IMG/VR virus record: IMGVR_UViG_3300024346_000004
Length of the DNA: 64,000 bases
Direction: 5' to 3' (one strand)
Origin: a virus
Lineage: Duplodnaviria > Caudoviricetes
Under the pieces are notes generated by a model, which saw only the letters and a program-made list of their open reading frames with translations, did not search any database and was not told the DNA's origin. Numbering within the stretch: the stretch's first letter is position 1; each line of letters begins with the position of its first letter. The translations under genes and the position numbers were made by a program. Positions 31,428 to 44,956 of this stretch are shown here, piece after piece.

Positions 31428-31455
31428 AGGAACTTAGTATATAAACTAAGGAAAT
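31428..31455 (+). promoter_or_regulatory. AGG-N19-GGAAAT promoter-like motif with an internal inverted repeat
   Basis: CTTAGT-atataa-ACTAAG lies in the spacer; an AAGGAG RBS follows downstream. Confidence 0.45.
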
Positions 31456-31480: not shown

Positions 31481-32401
31481 ATGGAAGACAATATCAAGTT
31501 CATTCCTGATGAAGAATTAGTTCCGATTCATGTAATGCAATCTTTTTCACAAGTTGTTGACTGGGGTTTGATGCAAAGCTCAATTCCTGAAGCATGGAAA
31601 TATACCATGGGTGAAGGTATTAACGTAGCTATTCTTGACACTGGTATTGCAGATCATCCTGACATGGAAGGTGCTCTTTTGCCACCTTTGAATTTTTCGG
31701 GAGAAAATGACCATCTTGATAGAAACGGTCACGGTACCCATTGTGCATCAATTGTTGCTGCAAGAAACAATGAATTGGGCATGGTTGGCGTTGCTCCAGG
31801 CTGTAATATTATATCTGTAAAGGTTCTCGGCAATAATGGCTCCGGCTCTTATGATGGAATTATTGCGGGTATTCAAGGCGCTATGGATGCTGGTGCCGAT
31901 ATTATTAGTATGTCCCTTGGTTCTCCTACAGAAGCCCCAATAGCTCTACATGAAAAAATAAAAGAAGCTACAAATAGAGGCATTATTGTTTTAGCAGCAG
32001 CCGGAAATGATGCCGGGAGAACAAATTATCCTGCTAGATATGATGAAGTTATTGCTGTCGCTGCTTTGGATAGAACTGGTAATTTGGCTCATTTTTCCAG
32101 TAGATCTGATGAAGTAGATGCTGTAGCTCCTGGGGTTGATATTTATGCATGTCACTTAAACAAAGGATATGCAAAGTTAAATGGCACTAGTCAAGCATGC
32201 CCGTTTATGGCTGGTGTTTGTGCTTTATTATTAGCATGGTCAAGAAAAACACCCGATGTTCCATTGATCAAGAATTACCAAGATATGTTGCAAAGATTAG
32301 ATGATGTTTGCGACAAAGATAGTAATAATGTTTCTCTTGGAAGATCTGGTGAATGGGGATTTGGTATTCCATCTTTTGCTAATAATAAATTTAGACCGTA
32401 A
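31481..32401 (+). CDS. S8 subtilisin-family serine protease, intracellular type
   Basis: Catalytic motifs ILDTG, HGTH, AAAGN and GTSQACP; no signal peptide; strong RBS. Confidence 0.95.
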   Translation: MEDNIKFIPDEELVPIHVMQSFSQVVDWGLMQSSIPEAWKYTMGEGINVAILDTGIADHPDMEGALLPPLNFSGENDHLDRNGHGTHCASIVAARNNELGMVGVAPGCNIISVKVLGNNGSGSYDGIIAGIQGAMDAGADIISMSLGSPTEAPIALHEKIKEATNRGIIVLAAAGNDAGRTNYPARYDEVIAVAALDRTGNLAHFSSRSDEVDAVAPGVDIYACHLNKGYAKLNGTSQACPFMAGVCALLLAWSRKTPDVPLIKNYQDMLQRLDDVCDKDSNNVSLGRSGEWGFGIPSFANNKFRP

Positions 32402-32439
32402 CTGAGGAAGAGCAAGTCTCAAAATAAAAATGTACTCAG

Positions 32440-32476
32440 CTCTTCTCCAATGTAACTCATAAAAACTGGAGAAGAG
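32440..32476 (+). promoter_or_regulatory. Anti-Shine-Dalgarno hairpin
   Basis: CTCTTCTCCA (32440-32449) is the perfect reverse complement of TGGAGAAGAG (32467-32476), which contains the RBS of the gene at 32480. Confidence 0.6.
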
Positions 32477-32479
32477 AAT

Positions 32480-32938
32480 ATGAAATTGAAATATAGTTTA
32501 ATAATTATATTTTTAGCTATTTCTGTGTATTTATTGGCTTATAGGCCGTTTAGAGTAGTAATGGTTATTGGAGAATCAATGACACCTACTCTAAAACCAT
32601 TTCAATTAGTTTTAGCTTATAAAACAGATAAACTAAAAACAGGCGATGTGGTTATTATCGATAGTATTGAAGCAGAAACATTAATAAAAAGAATAAAATA
32701 TGCGTCTGGTGATAAATACTCTTATTATATGGATTATTCTGGCATGATTTTGATGCCAGATAATAAAAAAGATCTTTATAATTTCTTACAAAATCATCAT
32801 AATTACAATAGAGTTATGACTTTTCAAATAAAAAAAGATTATTATTTTGTTTTGGGTGATAATCTAGAAAATTCTGATGATAGTAGAAGATTTGGCCCAG
32901 TAGCTAAATCTTACATAAAATATAAGGTTATTATGTAA
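32480..32938 (+). CDS. lepB: Signal peptidase I (S26)
   Basis: N-terminal TM segment, GESMTPTL (Ser), IKRI (Lys) and GDN...SDDSRRFG. Confidence 0.92.
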   Translation: MKLKYSLIIIFLAISVYLLAYRPFRVVMVIGESMTPTLKPFQLVLAYKTDKLKTGDVVIIDSIEAETLIKRIKYASGDKYSYYMDYSGMILMPDNKKDLYNFLQNHHNYNRVMTFQIKKDYYFVLGDNLENSDDSRRFGPVAKSYIKYKVIM

Positions 32939-33615
32939 TGTCATTTAAGTTAAGTGTTGATTTAATCGAGTGGAATATGAAAGCTGCCCAAAAGGTCAGT
33001 GATCCCATTAAAGAAGTAATCCAGGATGCAATCAAAGCCAGTTGTACTATTTACGTTAAAACAGGTAAAGAACAATGGACAGGTAGTGGTTTTCATTTAG
33101 GTAATGGATATATTGCTACTGCTGGTCATGTTGCTCCAGAAGATCTAAAATCAATGGGAGCTCAGATTATAATCACATTTGACGGACAATCATTATATGA
33201 AGCTAGTGTAGTTTTAAGCAGTGATGAATATGACAGCGCTGTATTGTATTGCCAAGATATTGCTAGAATCGTACCTTCAGTTAATTTAGCAGATTCTGAT
33301 ACAGTGGAAATAGGCGATATAATTGCTGTCATTGGTGCTCCAGAGGGCTGGCAAGACACAGCAACGGTTGGCAGAGTAAGTAATATTCACCAATCTGTTC
33401 CTGGTGATGCTGGCCCTTCTTGGCAAGATATTATTTTTATTGATGCTGATATTCTGCAAGGAGTATCAGGCGGAATGGTTATTGGTACTGACGGTCTCGT
33501 AATAGGACATGTTATAGGTGTAACTGGGCAACACGCAGATGTAGGTGTGGGCGAAAATTCTGTATGCCCTATCAACAAGCTAAAATTATTACTTAATTCA
33601 ATTTCTAGCGTATAA
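32938..33615 (+). CDS. Trypsin-like (S1, HtrA-like) serine protease without PDZ
   Basis: GSGF, TAGHV (His), DSAVL (Asp) and GVSGG (Ser). Confidence 0.92.
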
Positions 33616-33622
33616 TATATGT
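33611..33622 (+). promoter_or_regulatory. Leaderless-type -10 element of dnaJ
   Basis: TATAAT followed by 6 nt and then the GTG start; no SD. Confidence 0.55.
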
Positions 33623-34624
33623 GTGGACTACTATTCAATTTTAGGCGTAGATAAAAACGCATCTCAAGACGATATCAAAGCTTCATATCGCAAATTAGCA
33701 AGACAATTTCACCCAGACGTAAATAAAGAATCTGGTGCTGAAGAAAAGTTTAAGCAATTGGGTGAAGCATATTCTGTATTATCTGACCCAAATAAAAGAC
33801 AACAGTACGATAATCCTCAGCAGTTTAGACCTCAACAATCTGGGTTTGATCCATTCGGTTTTGATCCATTCTCAAATCCATTTCAAAGACAGCCACAACA
33901 AAATAATAGAAATATGCCTGTGTCAGTAAACATAGGACTATCATTAAAAGAAATTTATAATTCTGTTGAAAAAACAATTAATTATTCTAGAAATGTATGT
34001 TGCCATGATTGTTCTGGAAAAGGTGGATCTGGGTCTAAAAATATATGTCAACAATGCCAAGGTAGGGGCAGAAACATACAACAGATTCATGAGGGTATGT
34101 ATGTTCATGTAGTTGATTCTGGACCTTGTCAAGTTTGTAATGGTAATGGAATGATGTATTCATCTCCATGTTTAAAATGTAATGGAGCGGGATTCAAAAA
34201 TGAGAATTCATCCGTTACAGTTACTACAAAACATGGTATTTTATTTGATAATATTATTTTATCTGGTAAAGGTAATCATGTAGATCCAAACCAACAACCT
34301 GCTCCATTAATTATAGAATTTTATTTGGCTGATAATTCATTCCAATTTGATCAACAAGGTAATGGGATTAAGGAATATTTTATTAATCCAATTGAAGCTT
34401 TATTGGGCGACGAAATGGAAGTTGTTATGCCCGATGAAACACAATCTAAAATGAGAATACCTGCACACACCGCAAATAATCATATGTTTAGATTTGCAAA
34501 TAAAGGGTTACCAAGACCTAATGGATTTGGTGATTTCTTCGTCAAAATTTTGTATAAAAACCCTGATAGTATAACCGATAAGCAGAAAGAAATATTACAA
34601 AGTTATCTTGAGACTTTGAAGTGA
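33623..34624 (+). CDS. dnaJ: Class A DnaJ chaperone
   Basis: J domain with HPD, an F/Q-rich linker, four CxxCxGxG motifs and a C-terminal domain; GTG start. Confidence 0.96.
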
Positions 34625-34634
34625 GGATAAAATT

Positions 34635-34850
34635 ATGTCAATGATTAAGCGAGCTACTGGATCTATTCAGTCTTTTACATCTGAAGAGGGCGTAGAAGAA
34701 GAGATTAAGGTTGTAGAATCTGATGAAACACAGCCAGCTCCACAATCTATTATTGTTAAAGATGTATTGGACATTCCATTAGTAACATCTATGGATTTAG
34801 ATATCAATGCTACTGATGAAAGTGATGATGTAGTAGCTAAGGACTGCTAA
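34635..34850 (+). CDS. Small acidic hypothetical protein
   Basis: GAGGA RBS; abuts the next gene. Confidence 0.7.
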   Translation: MSMIKRATGSIQSFTSEEGVEEEIKVVESDETQPAPQSIIVKDVLDIPLVTSMDLDINATDESDDVVAKDC

Positions 34851-35321
34851 ATGGATATACTTCAGCGAGCAGGTGTTCTTGATAAAATTATGAACACCTT
34901 ATATCATGTTGGTAAAGATCATATTATTTTAGTAATCAGCTTTATTTTAGCTGTTTTACTTCTTCCATTTATTGCAAAAAGATTTAAAACAGAATCTGAT
35001 TACGTATACAAAGTGTTATTGTTAGTCAAAAGTGTATTGGGTTCAAAACTTGGTACTAAAGGTCAAGTAATTTTAGATGCTTGGGCTGAAGGTATCAAAC
35101 GAGCTTCTGATGGTACATTTGATGGTGCTGACAAAGTTGATCAACTAATTAGATTTCTCAAAATCGTTGCATCTCAAAATAATATTGAATTATCAGAGAC
35201 AGATGTAGCTATTATTACTGAATTAGCGGAAACATCTCTTAGTATGCTTCAAGGCCAGAAAAAGATTGATATTGCAGTGGGTGTGGATAAATTTCAATCA
35301 ATGTCTCATGTAATTGCATAA
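34851..35321 (+). CDS. Membrane protein, holin LL-H-like
   Basis: One N-terminal TM segment; GADK...LK...IELSETDV..I.E resembles the LL-H holin pattern. Confidence 0.45.
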   Translation: MDILQRAGVLDKIMNTLYHVGKDHIILVISFILAVLLLPFIAKRFKTESDYVYKVLLLVKSVLGSKLGTKGQVILDAWAEGIKRASDGTFDGADKVDQLIRFLKIVASQNNIELSETDVAIITELAETSLSMLQGQKKIDIAVGVDKFQSMSHVIA

Positions 35322-35345
35322 ATCGCATGAGCATGATATTATTAT
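35314..35345 (+). promoter_or_regulatory. Sigma70-type promoter of the helicase gene
   Basis: TTGCAT (35314)-17 nt-TATTAT (35337) with a TGn extension; ATG is 9 nt downstream. Confidence 0.55.
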
Positions 35346-35351
35346 TGTGAA

Positions 35352-37163
35352 ATGGTTGAAATTCACGTAAACAATCACGCATGCTTTATTGTAGGGTCAT
35401 TTTCGGATGACCCTTTTTATTCTAATTCTGTACATAATGAAATCAAAAAAGCATTATCTTACAAAGTACCGAATCATGAATGGTCTGAAAAATATAAGCA
35501 AGGCATTTGGGATGGTACGATTTCAATTTATAATCGTAAGCTAAGTCAATTTCCAACAGGATTGCTTTATAGGGTTATTGGATTATTAGATGAGCTCAAT
35601 GTTGAGCATAAAATTATAGATAATCGTAAAAGACCTAAAAAGGTTTACCCTTTAACATTAGATTTAGGTAATCGTACATTAAGAGATTACCAAAAACTCT
35701 CAGCAGAAAAATTTGCAGAAACTGGCACTGGTATTCTTGCTTTAGCTACTGGTGCTGGTAAAACATTAACTTCTTGCTACTTGTTTACCCAAATACAAAC
35801 TTACCCTGTTGTATTTATTGTTCCAGCCTTAGAATTGCTTAATCAAACTCAAAAAGAATTTGAAAAGTATTTAAGATTAGATGGTAAACCAGTTAAGGTA
35901 GGGAAAATTGGTGGTGGTGTAGTTGATATCAATATGGAAGGTATCAATGTCTGCACTTATCAAACTATTCTTACAGCATACAATAAAAAATATAATGAAA
36001 AGCAATATAAGATTGTTGAATCTAAAGATGGCGATGGTCCTAAATCTACCGAACAACTTCAAAAAGAATTTGATTTAGCTACAAAAAAGTGGAAGATTTC
36101 AGAAAATAATGCAAAAAGAGATTTATCTACATTATCATTAAGTATAGAGAATACTCAAAAGCAGATAGAAATAGAACAAGATCCCAAAAAGAAGAAAACA
36201 TTAACTACTTCATTAGCTAATCTTGAAAAACAATATAATAAAGATTTCGCTTCTAAAGTTAAAGTTGATTTAGCAGCATATAAAAAAGCTCAAACTGCAT
36301 GGGATAATAGACAAAAGATATTATATGAAAAATCACAAGTAAGAGATCTTATTTCTTCATGTAAAGGCTTTATTGTAGATGAAGCGCATTTGGCTGCAGT
36401 AGTTGTAGAAGAATTAAGATCTTTTGCACAAGAAGCTTTTTATTGTGGCGGAATGTCAGCAACTCCATATCGAACAGACAATCAAGAAATTCGTATAGAA
36501 GGTGCTTTAGGCGGGAAAATATACGAAGTAAGTAATAGTGATTTAATCGATAGGAAGTTCTTAGTACCTCCCAAAATCTTTATGGTTGAGATAGAAGAAT
36601 TTTCAACACCTCAAACATATGCTGACGCTTATGAGCAAAATATTGTAAATTCTTGGGAAAGAAACTATAGAATTAAACAATTTGCCGAATCTTTCAAAGA
36701 GGCTGGTTTACCTGTATTAATTTTAGTTGAAAGAAGAGAACATGGATTTATATTAGAATCTATGATTGAAGATGCAGTATTTGTTCCTGGTGGTGATAAG
36801 GGTGAAATAGACCCAACAGATGAAGAAAAGAATTACCGCAGAAGAATGCTTAATTCTGTGGAAAATAATGAAATAGTATTGATAGCTACACAATGGGCCA
36901 ATACAGGTGTAGATGCCCCTAAAATAGCCACTTTAATCATAGCTGGATCTTGCGCTTCTCCAGTTACAACATATCAGCAAGTAGGTAGAGTTCTAAGATG
37001 TGTAGGGCGAGATGCTAATGAATCTACACTAAACGGTAAACCATATGCTGTAGTGATAGATTTTTATGATCAACACAAGAATCTTAAAACCCATTCTAAT
37101 ATGAGGAAAAGGGTTTATAGATACGAAAGATCATGGGATTTTAAAATGATAAAGGCTACATAG
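35352..37163 (+). CDS. SF2 DExH helicase (UvsW / Rad25-like)
   Basis: ATGAGKT, DEAH, SATP and QQVGRVLR motifs. Confidence 0.93.
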   Translation: MVEIHVNNHACFIVGSFSDDPFYSNSVHNEIKKALSYKVPNHEWSEKYKQGIWDGTISIYNRKLSQFPTGLLYRVIGLLDELNVEHKIIDNRKRPKKVYPLTLDLGNRTLRDYQKLSAEKFAETGTGILALATGAGKTLTSCYLFTQIQTYPVVFIVPALELLNQTQKEFEKYLRLDGKPVKVGKIGGGVVDINMEGINVCTYQTILTAYNKKYNEKQYKIVESKDGDGPKSTEQLQKEFDLATKKWKISENNAKRDLSTLSLSIENTQKQIEIEQDPKKKKTLTTSLANLEKQYNKDFASKVKVDLAAYKKAQTAWDNRQKILYEKSQVRDLISSCKGFIVDEAHLAAVVVEELRSFAQEAFYCGGMSATPYRTDNQEIRIEGALGGKIYEVSNSDLIDRKFLVPPKIFMVEIEEFSTPQTYADAYEQNIVNSWERNYRIKQFAESFKEAGLPVLILVERREHGFILESMIEDAVFVPGGDKGEIDPTDEEKNYRRRMLNSVENNEIVLIATQWANTGVDAPKIATLIIAGSCASPVTTYQQVGRVLRCVGRDANESTLNGKPYAVVIDFYDQHKNLKTHSNMRKRVYRYERSWDFKMIKAT

Positions 37164-37175
37164 AGTAGCCTTTAT
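37149..37175. terminator. Bidirectional hairpin terminator
   Basis: ATAAAGGCTAC-ataga-GTAGCCTTTAT, an 11-bp perfect stem spanning the helicase stop codon. Confidence 0.75.
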
Positions 37176-37177
37176 TG

Positions 37178-37252
37178 TTAGTCAACCTTGAAATTGAATA
37201 CAGCACTATATACTGCTTCAAGCAATTCTTCAAATTCTTTTAAGAATCTCAA
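37178..37252 (-). CDS. Putative 24-aa small protein MRFLKEFEELLEAVYSAVFNFKVD
   Basis: AAGGAG + 7 nt + TTG start, upstream TATAAT (37326-37321), terminator directly after the stop; an in-frame ATG at 37282 would give 34 aa. Confidence 0.5.
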   Translation of the reverse strand: MRFLKEFEELLEAVYSAVFNFKVD

Positions 37253-37351
37253 TGTCTTTCTCCTTCTTATATTATTTCCCATCAACGGAATATAAGATTC
37301 GACATTGAAACTTACATATGATTATACTGTACTGAATAGCATAACACCTAG

Positions 37352-37381
37352 AGGAAGCTATCTATTTTCTTAAAGAATATT
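37352..37381 (+). promoter_or_regulatory. AGG-N19-AGAAT promoter-like motif
   Basis: AGG aagctatctattttcttaa AGAATATT upstream of 37411. Confidence 0.5.
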
Positions 37382-37410
37382 ACTCTTATCAACAAAAAAA
37401 GGCATATATC

Positions 37411-37761
37411 ATGAGAACACAGACTATTGTTGGAAAACCTAAATCATGCTTAAACCGTAATTGTCATTCTCCATTTTATAAAGAGTCCCATTTAGGCTGG
37501 CTTCCGAAATCAGAAGTGGAAGCTTATGCAATTATGAGATGTCCGAAATGTAAGGATACTTTTGCTGTTGTCCAATTAATGTCCATGGTATATGAATATA
37601 AAAATTCATTACCTAAAGACCCTAATAATGAGTTTAATCCTTCTTCTATATCATCAACAGAAATCAATAATTTCAGAAAGAAATTAGATGATTCTGATGC
37701 TTTAAAGAAAATATTTGAAGGCTTATATCCTGGTGGTAGCCTTTTTGATCCTGAAGAATAG
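37411..37761 (+). CDS. Zn-ribbon protein
   Basis: CLNRNC and CPKC cysteine pairs. Confidence 0.7.
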   Translation: MRTQTIVGKPKSCLNRNCHSPFYKESHLGWLPKSEVEAYAIMRCPKCKDTFAVVQLMSMVYEYKNSLPKDPNNEFNPSSISSTEINNFRKKLDDSDALKKIFEGLYPGGSLFDPEE

Positions 37762-37791
37762 CTTGTATAATTGCCATAGAGGGTAATTATT

Positions 37792-39516
37792 ATGGCAGTA
37801 GTAGGCATTGATTTAGGAACAACAAATTCATTAATTTCTTATATTAACAAGAATGGCATCCCTGAAGTAATCCCAAATTCAATTGGTTTTCGCACTACCC
37901 CATCTATTATCAGCTTTACTCCTGAGGGCGAAATATTTGTCGGTAGGGAAGCTGTAGATAACGAAACTTATTATCCAGAAACTACTTTTAGATCTGTTAA
38001 AAGATTCATGGGTACTAATCATAGATTTAATGTCTATGAAAAGATATATTCCCCCGAAGAATTATCTGCAGAAATACTAAAGAAATTAAAACAAGACGCA
38101 GAAACATTTTTAGGCGAATCTATTGAAGGAGCTGTCATAACGGTACCAGCTTATTTTAACAATGATCAACGACAATCTACAAAAATAGCTGGTGAATTAG
38201 CGGGTTTAAAGGTTATGAGAATTATTAATGAACCTACAGCTGCTTCTTTATCTTATGGATTAGATAAAAGTATAAATCAAACTGTTTTAGTATATGATCT
38301 TGGCGGTGGTACTTTTGATGTAACTATTCTCAAGATTTCTGATGGTATGGATTTTCATGTATTATCAACTTCAGGAGATACAAATTTAGGTGGAGATGAT
38401 TTTGATATCGCAATTATTGAAATGATTGCTGATAAATGTAATATCAATAGTTCTGACCTAAACACTGAACAATATGTAAGAATTAGAGATGCAGCAGAAA
38501 AAGCTAAAAAAGATCTTACATTCAAGGACAGTACGAGAATCAATCTTCATTATTTTCATTTTGTAGATGACCGCCCACAAGATATTAGATGTATTATTAC
38601 TAGAGAAGAATTTAATGAAAAAATTGCACCATTTGTAGATAAAACAAAAAAATGTGTGTCTTCTGCAATTTTTGATGCGGGATTGAAATTTGCAGATATT
38701 AATGAAGTGGTATTTGTCGGAGGATCAACTAGAGTTCCCTTTATTACAGAAGAAATTAAAAAGCTTACTGGCAAAAATCCTAATAAAACAATTAATCCCG
38801 ATGAAGCTGTTTCTGTAGGAGCCTGTATTCAAGCTGATGTTCTTACTGGTAAATCCGATAAGATGGTATTTCTTTTAGACGTAACTCCATTATCTTTAGG
38901 CGTAGAAATACAGGGCGGATTAATGAATAAGATGATTAGTAGAAATACATCTATTCCAGCCAAGTATACAGAAGTATTTACTACAGCATACGATAATCAA
39001 GAAGAAGTAGATGTCAAAGTGTTTCAAGGAGAAAGACCTAGAACAGAAGACAATATTCTTTTAGGTGAATTCAAGTTAGACAATTTAAAGAAACAACCTA
39101 GAGGCGTTACTAAAATTGAAGTGACATTTGAATTAGATTCGGATGGTATTTTATCTGTCAAAGCCCAAGATGAAACTACAGGGAATCAAAAGGATATTGT
39201 ATTAACTGGACAATCTTCATTATCGTCAGACCAAATTAAAAAACTGTTAGAAGATTCAGAAAAATTCAAAGCAGAAGATGAAGAATTTATTTATCATAAA
39301 AATCTTGAATACACAATTAATGATTTGATTATGCAAGTGGAAGAATTAATTAGAGTTCAAAAAAATAATGATGAATTAAAAGATATTTTGAAATCCTTAC
39401 AAGAAGTATCTGATTTTAAGAATAAAGAATTTATTAACGGATTGATAGAATCTGTAAAGGAGGATATATTAGAGATAAGCGATTTAATTTACAAGAAAGC
39501 AAAATCTTTAGTATGA
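37792..39516 (+). CDS. dnaK: Hsp70 chaperone DnaK with a short C-terminus
   Basis: GIDLGTTNS, TVPAYF, RIINEPTAA, YDLGGGTFD, VGGSTRVP and LLDVTPLSLG; upstream TATAAT at 37766 and a GAGGG RBS. Confidence 0.97.
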   Translation: MAVVGIDLGTTNSLISYINKNGIPEVIPNSIGFRTTPSIISFTPEGEIFVGREAVDNETYYPETTFRSVKRFMGTNHRFNVYEKIYSPEELSAEILKKLKQDAETFLGESIEGAVITVPAYFNNDQRQSTKIAGELAGLKVMRIINEPTAASLSYGLDKSINQTVLVYDLGGGTFDVTILKISDGMDFHVLSTSGDTNLGGDDFDIAIIEMIADKCNINSSDLNTEQYVRIRDAAEKAKKDLTFKDSTRINLHYFHFVDDRPQDIRCIITREEFNEKIAPFVDKTKKCVSSAIFDAGLKFADINEVVFVGGSTRVPFITEEIKKLTGKNPNKTINPDEAVSVGACIQADVLTGKSDKMVFLLDVTPLSLGVEIQGGLMNKMISRNTSIPAKYTEVFTTAYDNQEEVDVKVFQGERPRTEDNILLGEFKLDNLKKQPRGVTKIEVTFELDSDGILSVKAQDETTGNQKDIVLTGQSSLSSDQIKKLLEDSEKFKAEDEEFIYHKNLEYTINDLIMQVEELIRVQKNNDELKDILKSLQEVSDFKNKEFINGLIESVKEDILEISDLIYKKAKSLV

Positions 39517-40097
39517 CCTCTTATGAATATGATAACAATTTAAGAACACAATATGGACCTTTAGTATGTGGCACTGATGAATGTGGTAGAGGTTCTTGGG
39601 TTTATTCTATTGTTGCAGCTAGTGTTGTAATGAAACCTGATTATTACAATGCTAAAATAAAAGATTCAAAGTTACTCTCGGAAAAATTGAGATCTCAATT
39701 ATATCAGGAAATTATTGATAATAGCCTATATTATAAAATAGTAGAAGCAGATAATCATTATATTGATAAATGGGGCATAAATAAAGCAAATATATATGTT
39801 ATGGAAGAATCTGCAAAAGAATCTAAAGCAAATATTTATGTAGTAGATCAATCACCGGCTTTTAGTTTAAATCCTTATCTTATGATGCCTAAAGCTGACA
39901 GTATTAGTTTTACTGTTTCATGTGCAAGTATTTTAGCTAAACATTATCATGACAGTAATTTAATAGAAATTGCAAAATCATATCCAGAATATAACTGGCA
40001 TAAAAATAAGGGTTATATTACAAAAGATCATAAAGAAGCTGTGATAAAATATGGTTTGTCCGATTTACATAGAAAGTCATATAAACTAAAATCATGA
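39513..40097 (+). CDS. rnhB: Ribonuclease HII
   Basis: GTDECGRG, KDSKLLS, ASILAK, NKGY and HRKSY motifs. Confidence 0.93.
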   Translation: MTSYEYDNNLRTQYGPLVCGTDECGRGSWVYSIVAASVVMKPDYYNAKIKDSKLLSEKLRSQLYQEIIDNSLYYKIVEADNHYIDKWGINKANIYVMEESAKESKANIYVVDQSPAFSLNPYLMMPKADSISFTVSCASILAKHYHDSNLIEIAKSYPEYNWHKNKGYITKDHKEAVIKYGLSDLHRKSYKLKS

Positions 40098-40498
40098 AGT
40101 TGTTTAATAATATTGGCATAGTATCTTCTTTTATTTGTGCAGTTCATTGTGCTATTACACCTTTACTATTAACTTTTTTACCGTTGTGGGGATTATCATT
40201 ATTAGCAGATAAAACATTTGAAGTTATTATGTTATGTTTATCTGGAATATTTGGAATACTTAATCTCTGTTTTGGTATTAAAAAACATAAATCATATAAA
40301 GCTTTAAGTTTATTTTCAATTGGATTCGGTCTGTCTGCAATTGGAAATATGTTTCACAGTCATATAGAAAATCATAAACATCACGAAATATTTGAACCAT
40401 ATATTCTTTTTCTAGTATTAGGCGGGATATTGATATGTATTTCTTATATTGTTAATTCTAAGCTTTGTAATTCTTGCAAGGTCTGTCATGTCAGATAA
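40094..40498 (+). CDS. MerC-family membrane protein
   Basis: S.ICAVHC..P motif, four TM segments and a His-rich loop. Confidence 0.8.
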   Translation: MKLFNNIGIVSSFICAVHCAITPLLLTFLPLWGLSLLADKTFEVIMLCLSGIFGILNLCFGIKKHKSYKALSLFSIGFGLSAIGNMFHSHIENHKHHEIFEPYILFLVLGGILICISYIVNSKLCNSCKVCHVR

Positions 40499-40994
40499 TA
40501 TTCCATCTAAATCTTTTAAAGAAAAAACCAACTCAGTAAATGAACTTGAGTTGGTTGATATAAGATTAGAAAAAATATTAATAGGTCCTAATGATAAGGC
40601 ATATGTGTTAATTGGTGATACTGAAAAAACAGTATGCTTTGAATTAAATTCTTTTGAAGGCAGTATGTTGTCTTTTGTTTATAAAGGCTTGCATACTAAT
40701 TCACATATACAAACAATACATCAGTTGTATATTAGATATTTGAAAGATCAGGGAACTAATCTTGAAAGGGTGGTAATTGAATCTAGAGCGGGAGATATTA
40801 CTTATGCTAGCTTAAGATTCGTTGATATCAAGCATAGAAGATATTATGCCATTTGTTCTTTAGGAGATGCTTTGATTCTTTCTTATTTAACAAAGTGCTC
40901 ACTCTCAGCAGTCAAAAAACCGTGGCTTACCTACGATCCTTATGATGACACCAATTATGAGCACTTTATTATAGATTTGTCCCCTGAAGACTAG
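40488..40994 (+). CDS. Bifunctional nuclease (DUF151) family protein
   Basis: THQL-like segment followed by LERVVI...TYASLRF...SLGDALIL; the ATG at 40488 is more plausible than the TTG at 40449. Confidence 0.7.
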   Translation: MSDNIPSKSFKEKTNSVNELELVDIRLEKILIGPNDKAYVLIGDTEKTVCFELNSFEGSMLSFVYKGLHTNSHIQTIHQLYIRYLKDQGTNLERVVIESRAGDITYASLRFVDIKHRRYYAICSLGDALILSYLTKCSLSAVKKPWLTYDPYDDTNYEHFIIDLSPED

Positions 40995-43722: not shown

Positions 43723-44487
43723 TTAATTGTCCTTAAAAATAATATTCTGAAGTTTTTCTAATGCTTCCTCTTCGTCAAATAAATCAAATTCTATCATAAT
43801 TCTGTGAAGTAAATCTTCTTTAATATCTGACACTCTACTGCCTGGAGGATCTTTTGTATGAATGGCCCATAATTCTAAATTTTCAATACGATTATCAGAT
43901 CTAATACCGTTCTTATGATGAACTCTTTCTTCTTTGTGTAATGGTCTTCCTAAAGATTGTTCTATCATATACCTATGTTCTAATCGCCATTTACTATCTA
44001 CTTTTAAATAAATGTAACCTTGTGGGTGTGTTTTTTTATCACCATTTTGATATTTACTATATTTTATCTGATATGATTTAGATGAACATGATCTAGAGCA
44101 ATATTTAGTACCTGGTTTCTTATCTAGCAAAGATTTTTCACAGGCAAGGCATTTTACATCTTTTTCTCTGTTTCTCATCCTTACATATTTATAACCGCAC
44201 TCTGCCCCGCATGTAAGAGTATTCCCATGGTATGTTTTTTCGCATACTGGACAAATTTTAGATTCCTTACCATGTTCTTTATAGAATTCATACCAACATT
44301 CAGAAGAACAAAGCTCTCCAGTTGTATTGGATTTGATAGGAAAATCTTTTCCACATTGTTTACATGCAGAAGTTCCCAATCTATTCAGTTTACATTCTGG
44401 AGAGCAATATTTTTGACGATAATTAATTGTTGTAAATGCTTTGTCACATATAGCACAACTTTTTTCAATAGATTTTTGTGTAAACAT
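43723..44487 (-). mobile_element. Free-standing HNH homing endonuclease with four Zn-finger repeats (254 aa)
   Basis: Four CxxC...(Y/L/T)CxxxC repeats and EHR...VHHKNGIRSDNRIENLEL; start revised to the ATG at 44487. Confidence 0.88.
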
Positions 44488-44499
44488 GTTAGTATTATA
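44488..44499 (-). promoter_or_regulatory. Leaderless-type -10 element of the HNH gene
   Basis: TATAAT-actaac-ATG with no SD. Confidence 0.6.
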
Positions 44500-44551
44500 C
44501 CGCAAAATATGCCTAATGAAAACAATATATGACTTCAAGTAATGGTTCAGC

Positions 44552-44956
44552 TTAAAGCTTGAACACCTTCGAGGCTCCTGTATCCCACTGTACAGTAATG
44601 TCACCGCCGTTTGGTTGAATCGGCAAGTTTGTTGCAGTATCGAAATAAGCAATAAGTTGGGAGGTAGATTCTGTACCTGTATCCCTATAAATAACGAATT
44701 GAGTAATTTGTGATCCAGAAACAGCAGTCATTGTAATATTGGATGCATTTGCTACACCAGCTCCAGGAGTGGATGTTGTTAATGCTGCAGATGTTGATAC
44801 TCTAGCACCAGCTGAAATATCTGATAAATATTGATGAGTAGAAAGGTTTACAGAATAAGCGCTAGAAAGTAAAACAACTTTAAATGTGTTACTTGCCCAG
44901 TTAATCTGTCCTAATAAGAATGCGTTTCTGCCAGTGTCGTAAAGAGCATTAGCCAT
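44552..44956 (-). CDS. Small virion structural protein (134 aa)
   Basis: MANALYD.GR..FL...LIAY.DTAT.LP..PNGGDI.V.WD, a pattern I recognise from phage tail-associated proteins; GGAG RBS. Confidence 0.7.
   Translation of the reverse strand: MANALYDTGRNAFLLGQINWASNTFKVVLLSSAYSVNLSTHQYLSDISAGARVSTSAALTTSTPGAGVANASNITMTAVSGSQITQFVIYRDTGTESTSQLIAYFDTATNLPIQPNGGDITVQWDTGASKVFKL

Follow-up and report, generated by a model that had tools for sequence, protein, structure and literature searches.

We analyzed a 64,000-nucleotide (nt) stretch of viral DNA (IMG/VR record IMGVR_UViG_3300024346_000004; Caudoviricetes), referred to here as the window, in which genes for three serine proteases (an S8 subtilase, an S26 type I signal peptidase, and an S1 protease of the HtrA kind) and for the chaperones DnaJ and DnaK form a conserved block. 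This block belongs to a large clade of uncultured, phage-G-like freshwater jumbo phages. Our preferred interpretation, to which we assign a probability of roughly 55%, is that it constitutes a conserved core, phage-owned kit for general protein folding and proteolysis during infection, the parts of which work in different compartments and do not make up one machine. To date, published phage Hsp70 systems have been described as host genes acquired recently and sporadically. In the present case, the genes for DnaK, DnaJ, and the three proteases have stayed in one order throughout a very abundant clade, and the divergence of the kept block is deeper than that between bacterial phyla in the same tree. 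These observations suggest lasting selection for a protein-care capacity of the phage's own beyond a certain genome and virion size.

Gene order and conservation of the block

The block lies in a plus-strand gene array (positions 240-40994) of a window that is nearly all coding (31% G+C). The array opens with seven large open reading frames (ORFs), the largest of 2867 amino acids (aa); Pfam searches and direct reading of the translations then gave the order S8, S26, S1, dnaJ, a 71-aa ORF, p156, a UvsW-like helicase, p116, dnaK, RNase HII, a MerC-like gene, and a gene for a 181-aa protein (Table 1). The S8 and S26 genes are separated by 78 nt, S26 and S1 overlap by 1 nt, and 7 nt separate S1 from dnaJ. 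Further along, p116 and dnaK lie 30 nt apart, and dnaK overlaps RNase HII, as RNase HII does the MerC-like gene, by 4 nt. The sole sizeable noncoding stretch measures 247 nt and lies 5' of p116. From the end of dnaJ to the start of dnaK the distance is 3.2 kb, and the array runs on past dnaK with nucleic acid- and membrane-related genes (RNase HII and the MerC-like gene). The initial annotation had described a proteostasis island at this place. All five of its genes are present with intact catalytic motifs, but they are not contiguous, four unrelated genes splitting dnaJ from dnaK. The giant ORFs that flank the block (991-2867 aa) carry PA14 and LamG domains and have domain-level PHROG matches to tail fiber and virion structural proteins.

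Relatives were found through back-translated searches of IMG/VR with DnaK, p116, and S1 as queries, and the related contigs reach 358 and 379 kb. As far as each stretch reached, the order of the block was the same in all 14 related loci examined: a giant gene, S8, S26, S1, dnaJ, p156, helicase, p116, dnaK, MerC, p181, and then two minus-strand tail-region genes. Co-occurrence in related phages had been put forward as a check on the initial annotation, and the block proved strictly syntenic across a deep clade, with orthologous proteins only 33 to 66% identical across the loci. In the window the block directly follows the gene for the 2867-aa protein, and a homologous giant gene precedes it in all relatives.

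One relative (G001; 378,848 bp) is 100% complete by CheckV and a second (G002) is 89% complete. G001 encodes a portal, a head-maturation-protease domain, and a major head protein, the last of which shares 46.5% identity with gp27 of Bacillus phage G. A cellular origin of the window, either from the Candidate Phyla Radiation or from another low-G+C cell, was ruled out by the portal, major capsid protein, and head-protease genes of the relatives together with the CheckV completeness. The contig is thus viral, as the initial annotation had supposed. With megablast, no DNA-level match of the window to any deposited phage was detected. The clade is abundant in metagenomes, with more than 120 DnaK clusters at 90% identity, 504 S1 homologues, and contigs of up to 421 kb; when more distant viral loci with p116 or S1 were sought by sequence pattern, every hit fell within this clade.

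We surveyed 15 to 16 nonidentical orthologues per family for invariant residues, and the catalytic motifs of all five families were kept. Invariance of these motifs among orthologues that share just 33 to 60% identity indicates purifying selection. Judged by their sequences, the five genes thus appear functional but divergent.

The three proteases

The S8 protein appears to be a cytoplasmic subtilisin of the intracellular subtilisin (ISP) type. Its triad (D53/H84/S237) is in subtilisin order and is invariant in 16 orthologues, and a heuristic predictor found no signal-peptide-like N terminus. Two ISP entries in the PDB, 7y6m and 7xr8, align to it from residues 6 and 13, and like the ISPs of Bacillus and its relatives it lacks a long prodomain and has a short N-terminal extension, in which [FL]-[IL]-P is invariant in the same 16 orthologues. 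In Bacillus ISPs, an N-terminal extension of the LIPY/F type is self-inhibiting. The phage extension may be of the same kind, making autoinhibition putative; the fourth motif residue is Y or F in the Bacillus enzymes, whereas it is D, E, I, or V in the phage proteins. S8 scored far under the NCBIfam cut-offs, and its identity to phage database proteins was 37 to 42% among the best 25 matches listed. ISP-like S8 genes are already annotated in many large Bacillus phages (for example, as "intracellular serine protease" in FADO, and in Goe3 and SP-15). Unlike these genes and the ISPs themselves, the S8 gene of the window is the first of an operon that also includes the genes for a signal peptidase, an HtrA-like protease, and DnaJ.

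S26 conforms closely to the SpsB/SipS type of signal peptidase (TIGR02227). It shares with this type the Ser/Lys dyad (S33/K70), the conserved boxes (including GDN..SxDS, which like the dyad is invariant across orthologues), a single N-terminal anchor, and a score over the family cut-off (80.4 versus 47 bits); it differs in being phage encoded and unusually small at 152 aa. Hydropathy placed a transmembrane (TM) segment at residues 1 to 20, followed by the catalytic Ser box, and the closest solved structures were SpsB and SipA. In a collection of 50,697 phage records, signal peptidase I matches occurred in only twelve, mostly short contigs labeled as Staphylococcus, Enterococcus, or Listeria phages, which in our reading look like bacterial DNA. 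No paper on a phage signal peptidase I or on an S8-S26-S1-dnaJ operon was found in the searchable literature.

In type I signal peptidases, the catalytic domain lies on the outer face of the membrane. By analogy with this family topology, S26 would be membrane anchored and exofacial and would cut only Sec-exported preproteins. However, none of the giant proteins of the window has a signal-peptide-like N terminus according to a crude predictor. The same predictor flagged 7 of 426 ORFs in G001, of which one was the S26 orthologue and about three read as classical signal peptides. Given an exofacial S26 and giant proteins without signal peptides, S26 would be unable to process the fibers.

These observations bear on the proposal of the initial annotation that the block is a dedicated folding and processing line for giant virion appendages, in which DnaJ and DnaK would fold the appendages and S8, S1, and S26 would trim them. 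We now regard this proposal as unlikely, although the block stands directly behind the gene for the 2867-aa protein or its homologue in the window and in all relatives, a class of promoter-like sites is common to S8 and tail genes (see below), and the giant proteins, being multidomain (PA14 and LamG), are clients of the sort that needs Hsp70. Besides the placement of S26, the presence of helicase, RNase HII, and MerC-like genes within the block and of further chaperone genes at distances of tens of kb in the relatives speaks against it. Adjacency is the sole link to the fiber genes, and a conserved order is what core phage genes normally show. Since the three proteases would act in different places, they could not form one processing line.

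S1 appears from its sequence to be an HtrA-type protease domain and not a canonical HtrA. Like HtrA and DegP (family S1C), it has a protease domain with an H-D-S triad (H64/D99/S177, invariant in 16 orthologues); its best PDB matches are HtrA protease domains, and its best NCBIfam matches are likewise of this kind, with scores of at most 73 bits against cut-offs of 250 to 800 among the ten models listed. HtrA and DegP carry one or two PDZ domains at the C terminus, are exported to the periplasm or envelope, and exceed 350 aa. In contrast, Pfam detected no PDZ domain in S1, the 225-aa protein ending with the protease domain, and the predictor found no signal peptide. Of 504 S1 homologues, the best 120 were all 219 to 255 aa long and without PDZ. 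S1 further differs from HtrA/DegP in belonging to a large phage-specific subfamily and in carrying a leader with a [KR]-x-[AS]-Q motif.

This 18-residue leader ends in the motif (residues 15 to 18) in 16 of 16 orthologues, the N terminus being otherwise variable; the window protein has K15, A17, and Q18. Similar N-terminal leaders, ...KRIAQ and MWY[KR]xAQ, are visible in G001, whose proteome contains RIAQ seven times, five of them within the first 45 residues of a protein and one of these five in the S1 protease. The pattern suggests that S1 probably shares the processing site of leader-tagged proteins. G001 also encodes a candidate for the enzyme that cuts there. Directly 3' of its portal gene lies the gene for a 1426-aa protein (L152:88-4368; G001 133087-137367), residues 54 to 243 of which match head-maturation-protease PHROGs (phrog_18299, 9.8e-17), approximately 80 kb from the S8 and S1 genes. 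Pfam families S78 and S49 were absent, this protease being found instead by PHROG next to the portal, and neither S8 nor S1 matched any prohead protease family in Pfam or PHROG. With a separate head-maturation protease adjoining the portal, S8 and S1 are not needed as the prohead protease. As a side observation, the 1426-aa protein consists of the protease domain fused to a very long C-terminal part.

Because G001 has this canonical head protease, the role of a substrate, which might be packaged, is more likely for S1 than that of a processing enzyme. One could nevertheless suppose that S1 (or S8) removes [KR]-x-A-Q leaders from tagged proteins, or that S1 is itself leader-tagged capsid cargo. 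The invariance of the S1 motif and the clustering of RIAQ near N termini in G001 favor such a scheme, as does the preference of HtrA-type enzymes for small aliphatic P1 residues. We nonetheless consider it very unlikely: the protease beside the portal is the simpler candidate for cutting leaders, and the resemblance of the S1 leader to the long tag is confined to the last helix of the latter.

DnaJ, DnaK, and their candidate partners

The phage DnaJ is complete: its J, zinc finger, and C-terminal domains all scored over their Pfam cut-offs, and the translation shows HPD at residues 30 to 32, four CxxCxGxG repeats, and a G/F region. Among orthologues HPD was invariant, as were the six zinc finger cysteines examined out of eight (those of repeats 2 to 4). 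In DnaK, the invariant residues include D7, K70, the DLGGGT and GGS motifs, the linker residues D363/V364/P366, and R143/N146/T149, which we take to correspond to the J-domain interface of E. coli DnaK. Both proteins nonetheless fell under bacterial equivalog cut-offs in NCBIfam, DnaJ with 256 versus 377 bits (TIGR02349, DnaJ_bact) and DnaK with 639.4 versus 648 bits (NF001413) and 619 versus 822 bits (TIGR02350).

The best bacterial matches to DnaK came from many phyla, at 41 to 50% identity. Under the LG+C20 PMSF model, the DnaKs of the clade were monophyletic (support 100) and lay 1.5 substitutions per site away from every cellular DnaK and from those of other huge phages; for the cellular sequences this distance was made up of 0.64+0.86. 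DnaK thus fell in no sampled bacterial phylum; nesting within a single bacterial clade had been named at the outset as the outcome that would speak against the initial annotation. A FastTree placement beside Bacteroidota/Ignavibacteriota (support 97) was rejected as a long-branch effect, the clade joining no phylum under LG+C20 PMSF. Taken together, the monophyly, the long branch, and the more than 120 clusters indicate that the gene has long been kept in the virus lineage.

Phage DnaK and DnaJ as such are already published (PMC12619734; PMC7824862). Moraphages are freshwater jumbo phages with DnaK, DnaJ, and HSP20 genes, and seven of eight moraphage DnaKs nest inside Flavobacteriaceae (PMC12619734); we found no mention of GrpE in that paper. 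In our LG+C20 PMSF tree, three huge-phage DnaKs (accessions LR7565xx) nested inside Bacteroidota/FCB with support of 96 to 97. The clade described here resembles moraphages, Lak phages, and the LR7565xx phages in that full-length Hsp70 and J-proteins are encoded by uncultured jumbo or huge phages. However, the moraphage and LR7565xx DnaKs point to recent capture from hosts, whereas the DnaK of this clade forms a separate, long-branched viral lineage. Its dnaJ, moreover, is in an operon with three proteases, whereas the DnaK loci of five other huge phages had no protease genes nearby; three of these five also carry dnaJ.

The initial annotation had held that this is not a captured cellular heat shock operon, and the comparison with the cellular hrcA-grpE-dnaK-dnaJ operon agrees. 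Both have dnaK and a class A dnaJ, but the phage block differs in its order and neighbors and in lacking grpE and the CIRCE element (controlling inverted repeat of chaperone expression); hrcA was not searched for separately. GrpE (PF01025) gave no match at E≤1 in G001 or G002, the control for this search being positive in 14 of 14 genomes, and no CIRCE was present in the window at up to 3 mismatches. The position of DnaK outside the sampled bacterial phyla points the same way. The order S8-S26-S1-dnaJ...dnaK was not seen at the DnaK loci of the five other huge phages, a comparison from which bacterial neighborhoods were left out.

Additional chaperone genes lie elsewhere in the relatives. In both G001 and G002, genes for GroEL and for a second J-protein lie at a distance of tens of kb, and GroES was not found in either genome, with positive controls. 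In G002, a cellular-type ClpP (3.9e-68) adjoins Hsp20 (L128; G002 204892-208425) approximately 9 kb from GroEL, and G001 lacks both. With these genes so scattered, the relatives carry a dispersed set of proteostasis genes and not a single module. Two further features were noted around them. The gene for the second J-domain protein (∼330 to 340 aa; L131 and L132), which is not in the window, adjoins a gene that starts MAKHIYI[IV]DTCVLLHDP and was read as PIN/PhoH-like. Directly 3' of the phage GroEL gene, two tandem ORFs (L009:3161-4036; G001 292303-294017) start with a prepilin-type N-terminal methylation motif, MKKAFTLIELLVVIAIIAILAAILFPVF, which we take to be typical of Planctomycetota/Verrucomicrobiota-like hosts and hence a possible clue to the host.

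Upstream of dnaK, always by approximately 30 nt, lies p116, which was found in this clade only. Orthologues of its 116-aa product are 57 to 64% identical. Searches of Pfam, PHROG, and the Atlas families gave no match to the protein, no PDB fold matched it at E≤0.001, and its AlphaFold2 model was of moderate quality (mean pLDDT, 68). p116 could be a partner or regulator of DnaK. A bolder reading builds on this possibility: an autonomous viral Hsp70 of old viral descent would comprise DnaK, two J-proteins, and p116 as a non-GrpE partner (an exchange factor or client adaptor), and S1 would be packaged into the capsid or else switched on by the head protease, which would tie the chaperone-protease operon to the [KR]-x-A-Q leader code of the lineage. 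We judge this combination to be quite improbable.

Expression, proposed function, and neighboring genes

A promoter-like two-box site precedes S8 in the window (Table 1), and a version reading AGGAAT...ATAAAGAAT occurs at the same place in four relatives (L001, L002, L005, and L008). It is a close variant of an AGG-N17/18-DAGAA class of sites that is rare inside genes and precedes p116, p338, and the 99-aa ORF/tube genes. Because a site of the tube/p338 class precedes S8 here and in the four relatives, the protease-dnaJ operon is probably transcribed together with structural genes. The T4-like late promoter TATATAAA was not enriched (25 sites versus 22 expected), and generic sigma-70 and terminator scans gave no more matches than shuffled sequence.

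The same evidence on timing bears on a role in host takeover or counterdefense, in which phage DnaJ and DnaK would hijack or replace the host Hsp70 network while the proteases degraded host proteins. A heat shock sigma factor might, for example, be stabilized or titrated, or DnaJ-dependent defense sensors blunted. The initial annotation had likewise named remodeling of the host proteome as its alternative, which is conceivable. Precedents exist: the J-protein of phage RB43 acts on host DnaK and sigma-32, according to the account of PMC3486835 given in PMC12619734; the defense protein bNACHT25 is reported to need DnaJ (PMC12169576); and the moraphage paper itself proposes takeover or defense roles for phage heat shock proteins (PMC12619734). 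ISP-type and HtrA-type proteases are also broad in specificity. However, a full class A DnaJ with a full DnaK has the look of a working folding machine and not of a decoy, and a promoter-like site of the structural-gene class before S8 argues for late over early expression. A takeover role, and with it the specific examples given here, therefore seems doubtful to us.

We favor instead the general folding and proteolysis kit, which might work as follows. DnaJ would deliver unfolded phage, and perhaps host, proteins to phage DnaK, and DnaK would borrow the nucleotide exchange factor GrpE from the host, since no GrpE gene lies beside phage DnaK or elsewhere in the relatives. The two cytoplasmic proteases, S8 and S1, would act in quality control or limited processing, and S26 would serve the few exported phage proteins or prop up host secretion. 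Probably expressed late, the kit would add capacity at the time when tens of kb of giant multidomain virion proteins must fold.

Several points weigh against this interpretation. Since DnaK and DnaJ both score under the NCBIfam equivalog cut-offs, it is conceivable that their function is altered. That DnaK employs GrpE of the host is assumed. The late timing leans on a motif of putative function; moreover, relatives have a hairpin followed by TATAAT upstream of p116 and no AGG-N18-AAGAA, and with that site not conserved the timing of dnaK expression is uncertain. The position of the block directly after the largest structural gene in every locus would also fit a specific link to that protein. 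Finally, the helicase and RNase HII genes in the array could point to a role of DnaK and DnaJ in replication. A signal peptidase I of a kind otherwise matched in only twelve doubtful records of the phage collection, the leader-bearing HtrA-like protease, and an Hsp70 without GrpE offer experimental handles on the building of giant virions and on the dependence of phages on host co-chaperones, although no new mechanism is revealed as yet.

TABLE 1 Features of the block and its surroundings in the window
Feature	Coordinates	Strand	Basis or remark
Promoter-like two-box site AGGAA-N-AAGGAA (putative function)	31428-31455	+	26 nt upstream of S8 start
S8 subtilase, ISP type, 306 aa	31481-32401	+	Pfam PF00082 Peptidase_S8, 1.6e-50
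S26 type I signal peptidase, 152 aa	32480-32938	+	Pfam PF10502 Peptidase_S26, 4e-19
S1 (S1C/HtrA-like) protease domain, no PDZ, 225 aa	32938-33615	+	Pfam PF13365 Trypsin_2, 3.9e-17
Class A (type I) DnaJ, 333 aa, GTG start	33623-34624	+	Pfam DnaJ, DnaJ_CXXCXGXG, DnaJ_C
Acidic 71-aa ORF filling the dnaJ-p156 gap (candidate gene)	34635-34850	+	No family match
p156, single-pass membrane protein, 156 aa	34851-35321	+	TM near residues 19-45; syntenic in all relatives
UvsW-like superfamily 2 (SF2) DNA helicase, 603 aa	35352-37163	+	Pfam ResIII, Helicase_C, UvsW_N; phrog_16 DNA helicase, 6.5e-75
Promoter-like site AGG-N18-AAGAA	37352-37377	+	34 nt upstream of p116
p116, zinc ribbon protein, 116 aa	37411-37761	+	Four invariant Cys; zinc ribbon plus helices
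DnaK/Hsp70, 574 aa, short lid, no C-terminal tail	37792-39516	+	Pfam HSP70, 1.2e-174, most of profile covered
RNase HII	39513-40097	+	Pfam PF01351, 2.7e-26; 4-nt overlap with dnaK
MerC-like multipass membrane protein, 134 aa	40094-40498	+	Pfam PF03203, 5.7e-19; three TM (hydropathy); syntenic in relatives
Conserved 181-aa protein, last plus-strand gene of the array	40449-40994	+	Syntenic in all relatives; sole family match a subthreshold BFN_dom

In a replication role, DnaK and DnaJ would act on replication or recombination complexes by remodeling them, as DnaK, DnaJ, and GrpE of the host do for phage lambda. It was through their requirement in lambda DNA replication that the host genes dnaK, dnaJ, and grpE were discovered, and this precedent, together with the placement of dnaJ, the helicase, dnaK, and RNase HII in one tight, co-oriented array, speaks for such a role. 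However, RNase HII was found in the window and in two related loci (L007 and L023) only and is absent from the others; this distribution marks it as an accessory gene inserted between dnaK and the MerC-like gene. In addition, a replication scheme does not account for the three proteases, whose translation is coupled to that of dnaJ, and a class A DnaJ is a general folding co-chaperone. On balance, we hold a replication role to be highly improbable.

The remaining genes of the array yielded minor observations. The 71-aa ORF starts MSMIKRAT, a loose match to the leader-end motif of the lineage. p156 had a weak match to the Pfam family Phage_holin_6_1 (0.0084), under the cut-off. The helicase orthologue in G001 (L007:6393-9479) is 1028 aa long, compared with approximately 600 aa elsewhere, and only 244 residues align (66% identity); the enlarged protein may contain a large insertion such as an intein or endonuclease. 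Beyond the array, an ORF for an HNH endonuclease (43723-44652, minus strand), situated between the genes of the tail region, is missing from the related loci and probably represents a mobile homing endonuclease.

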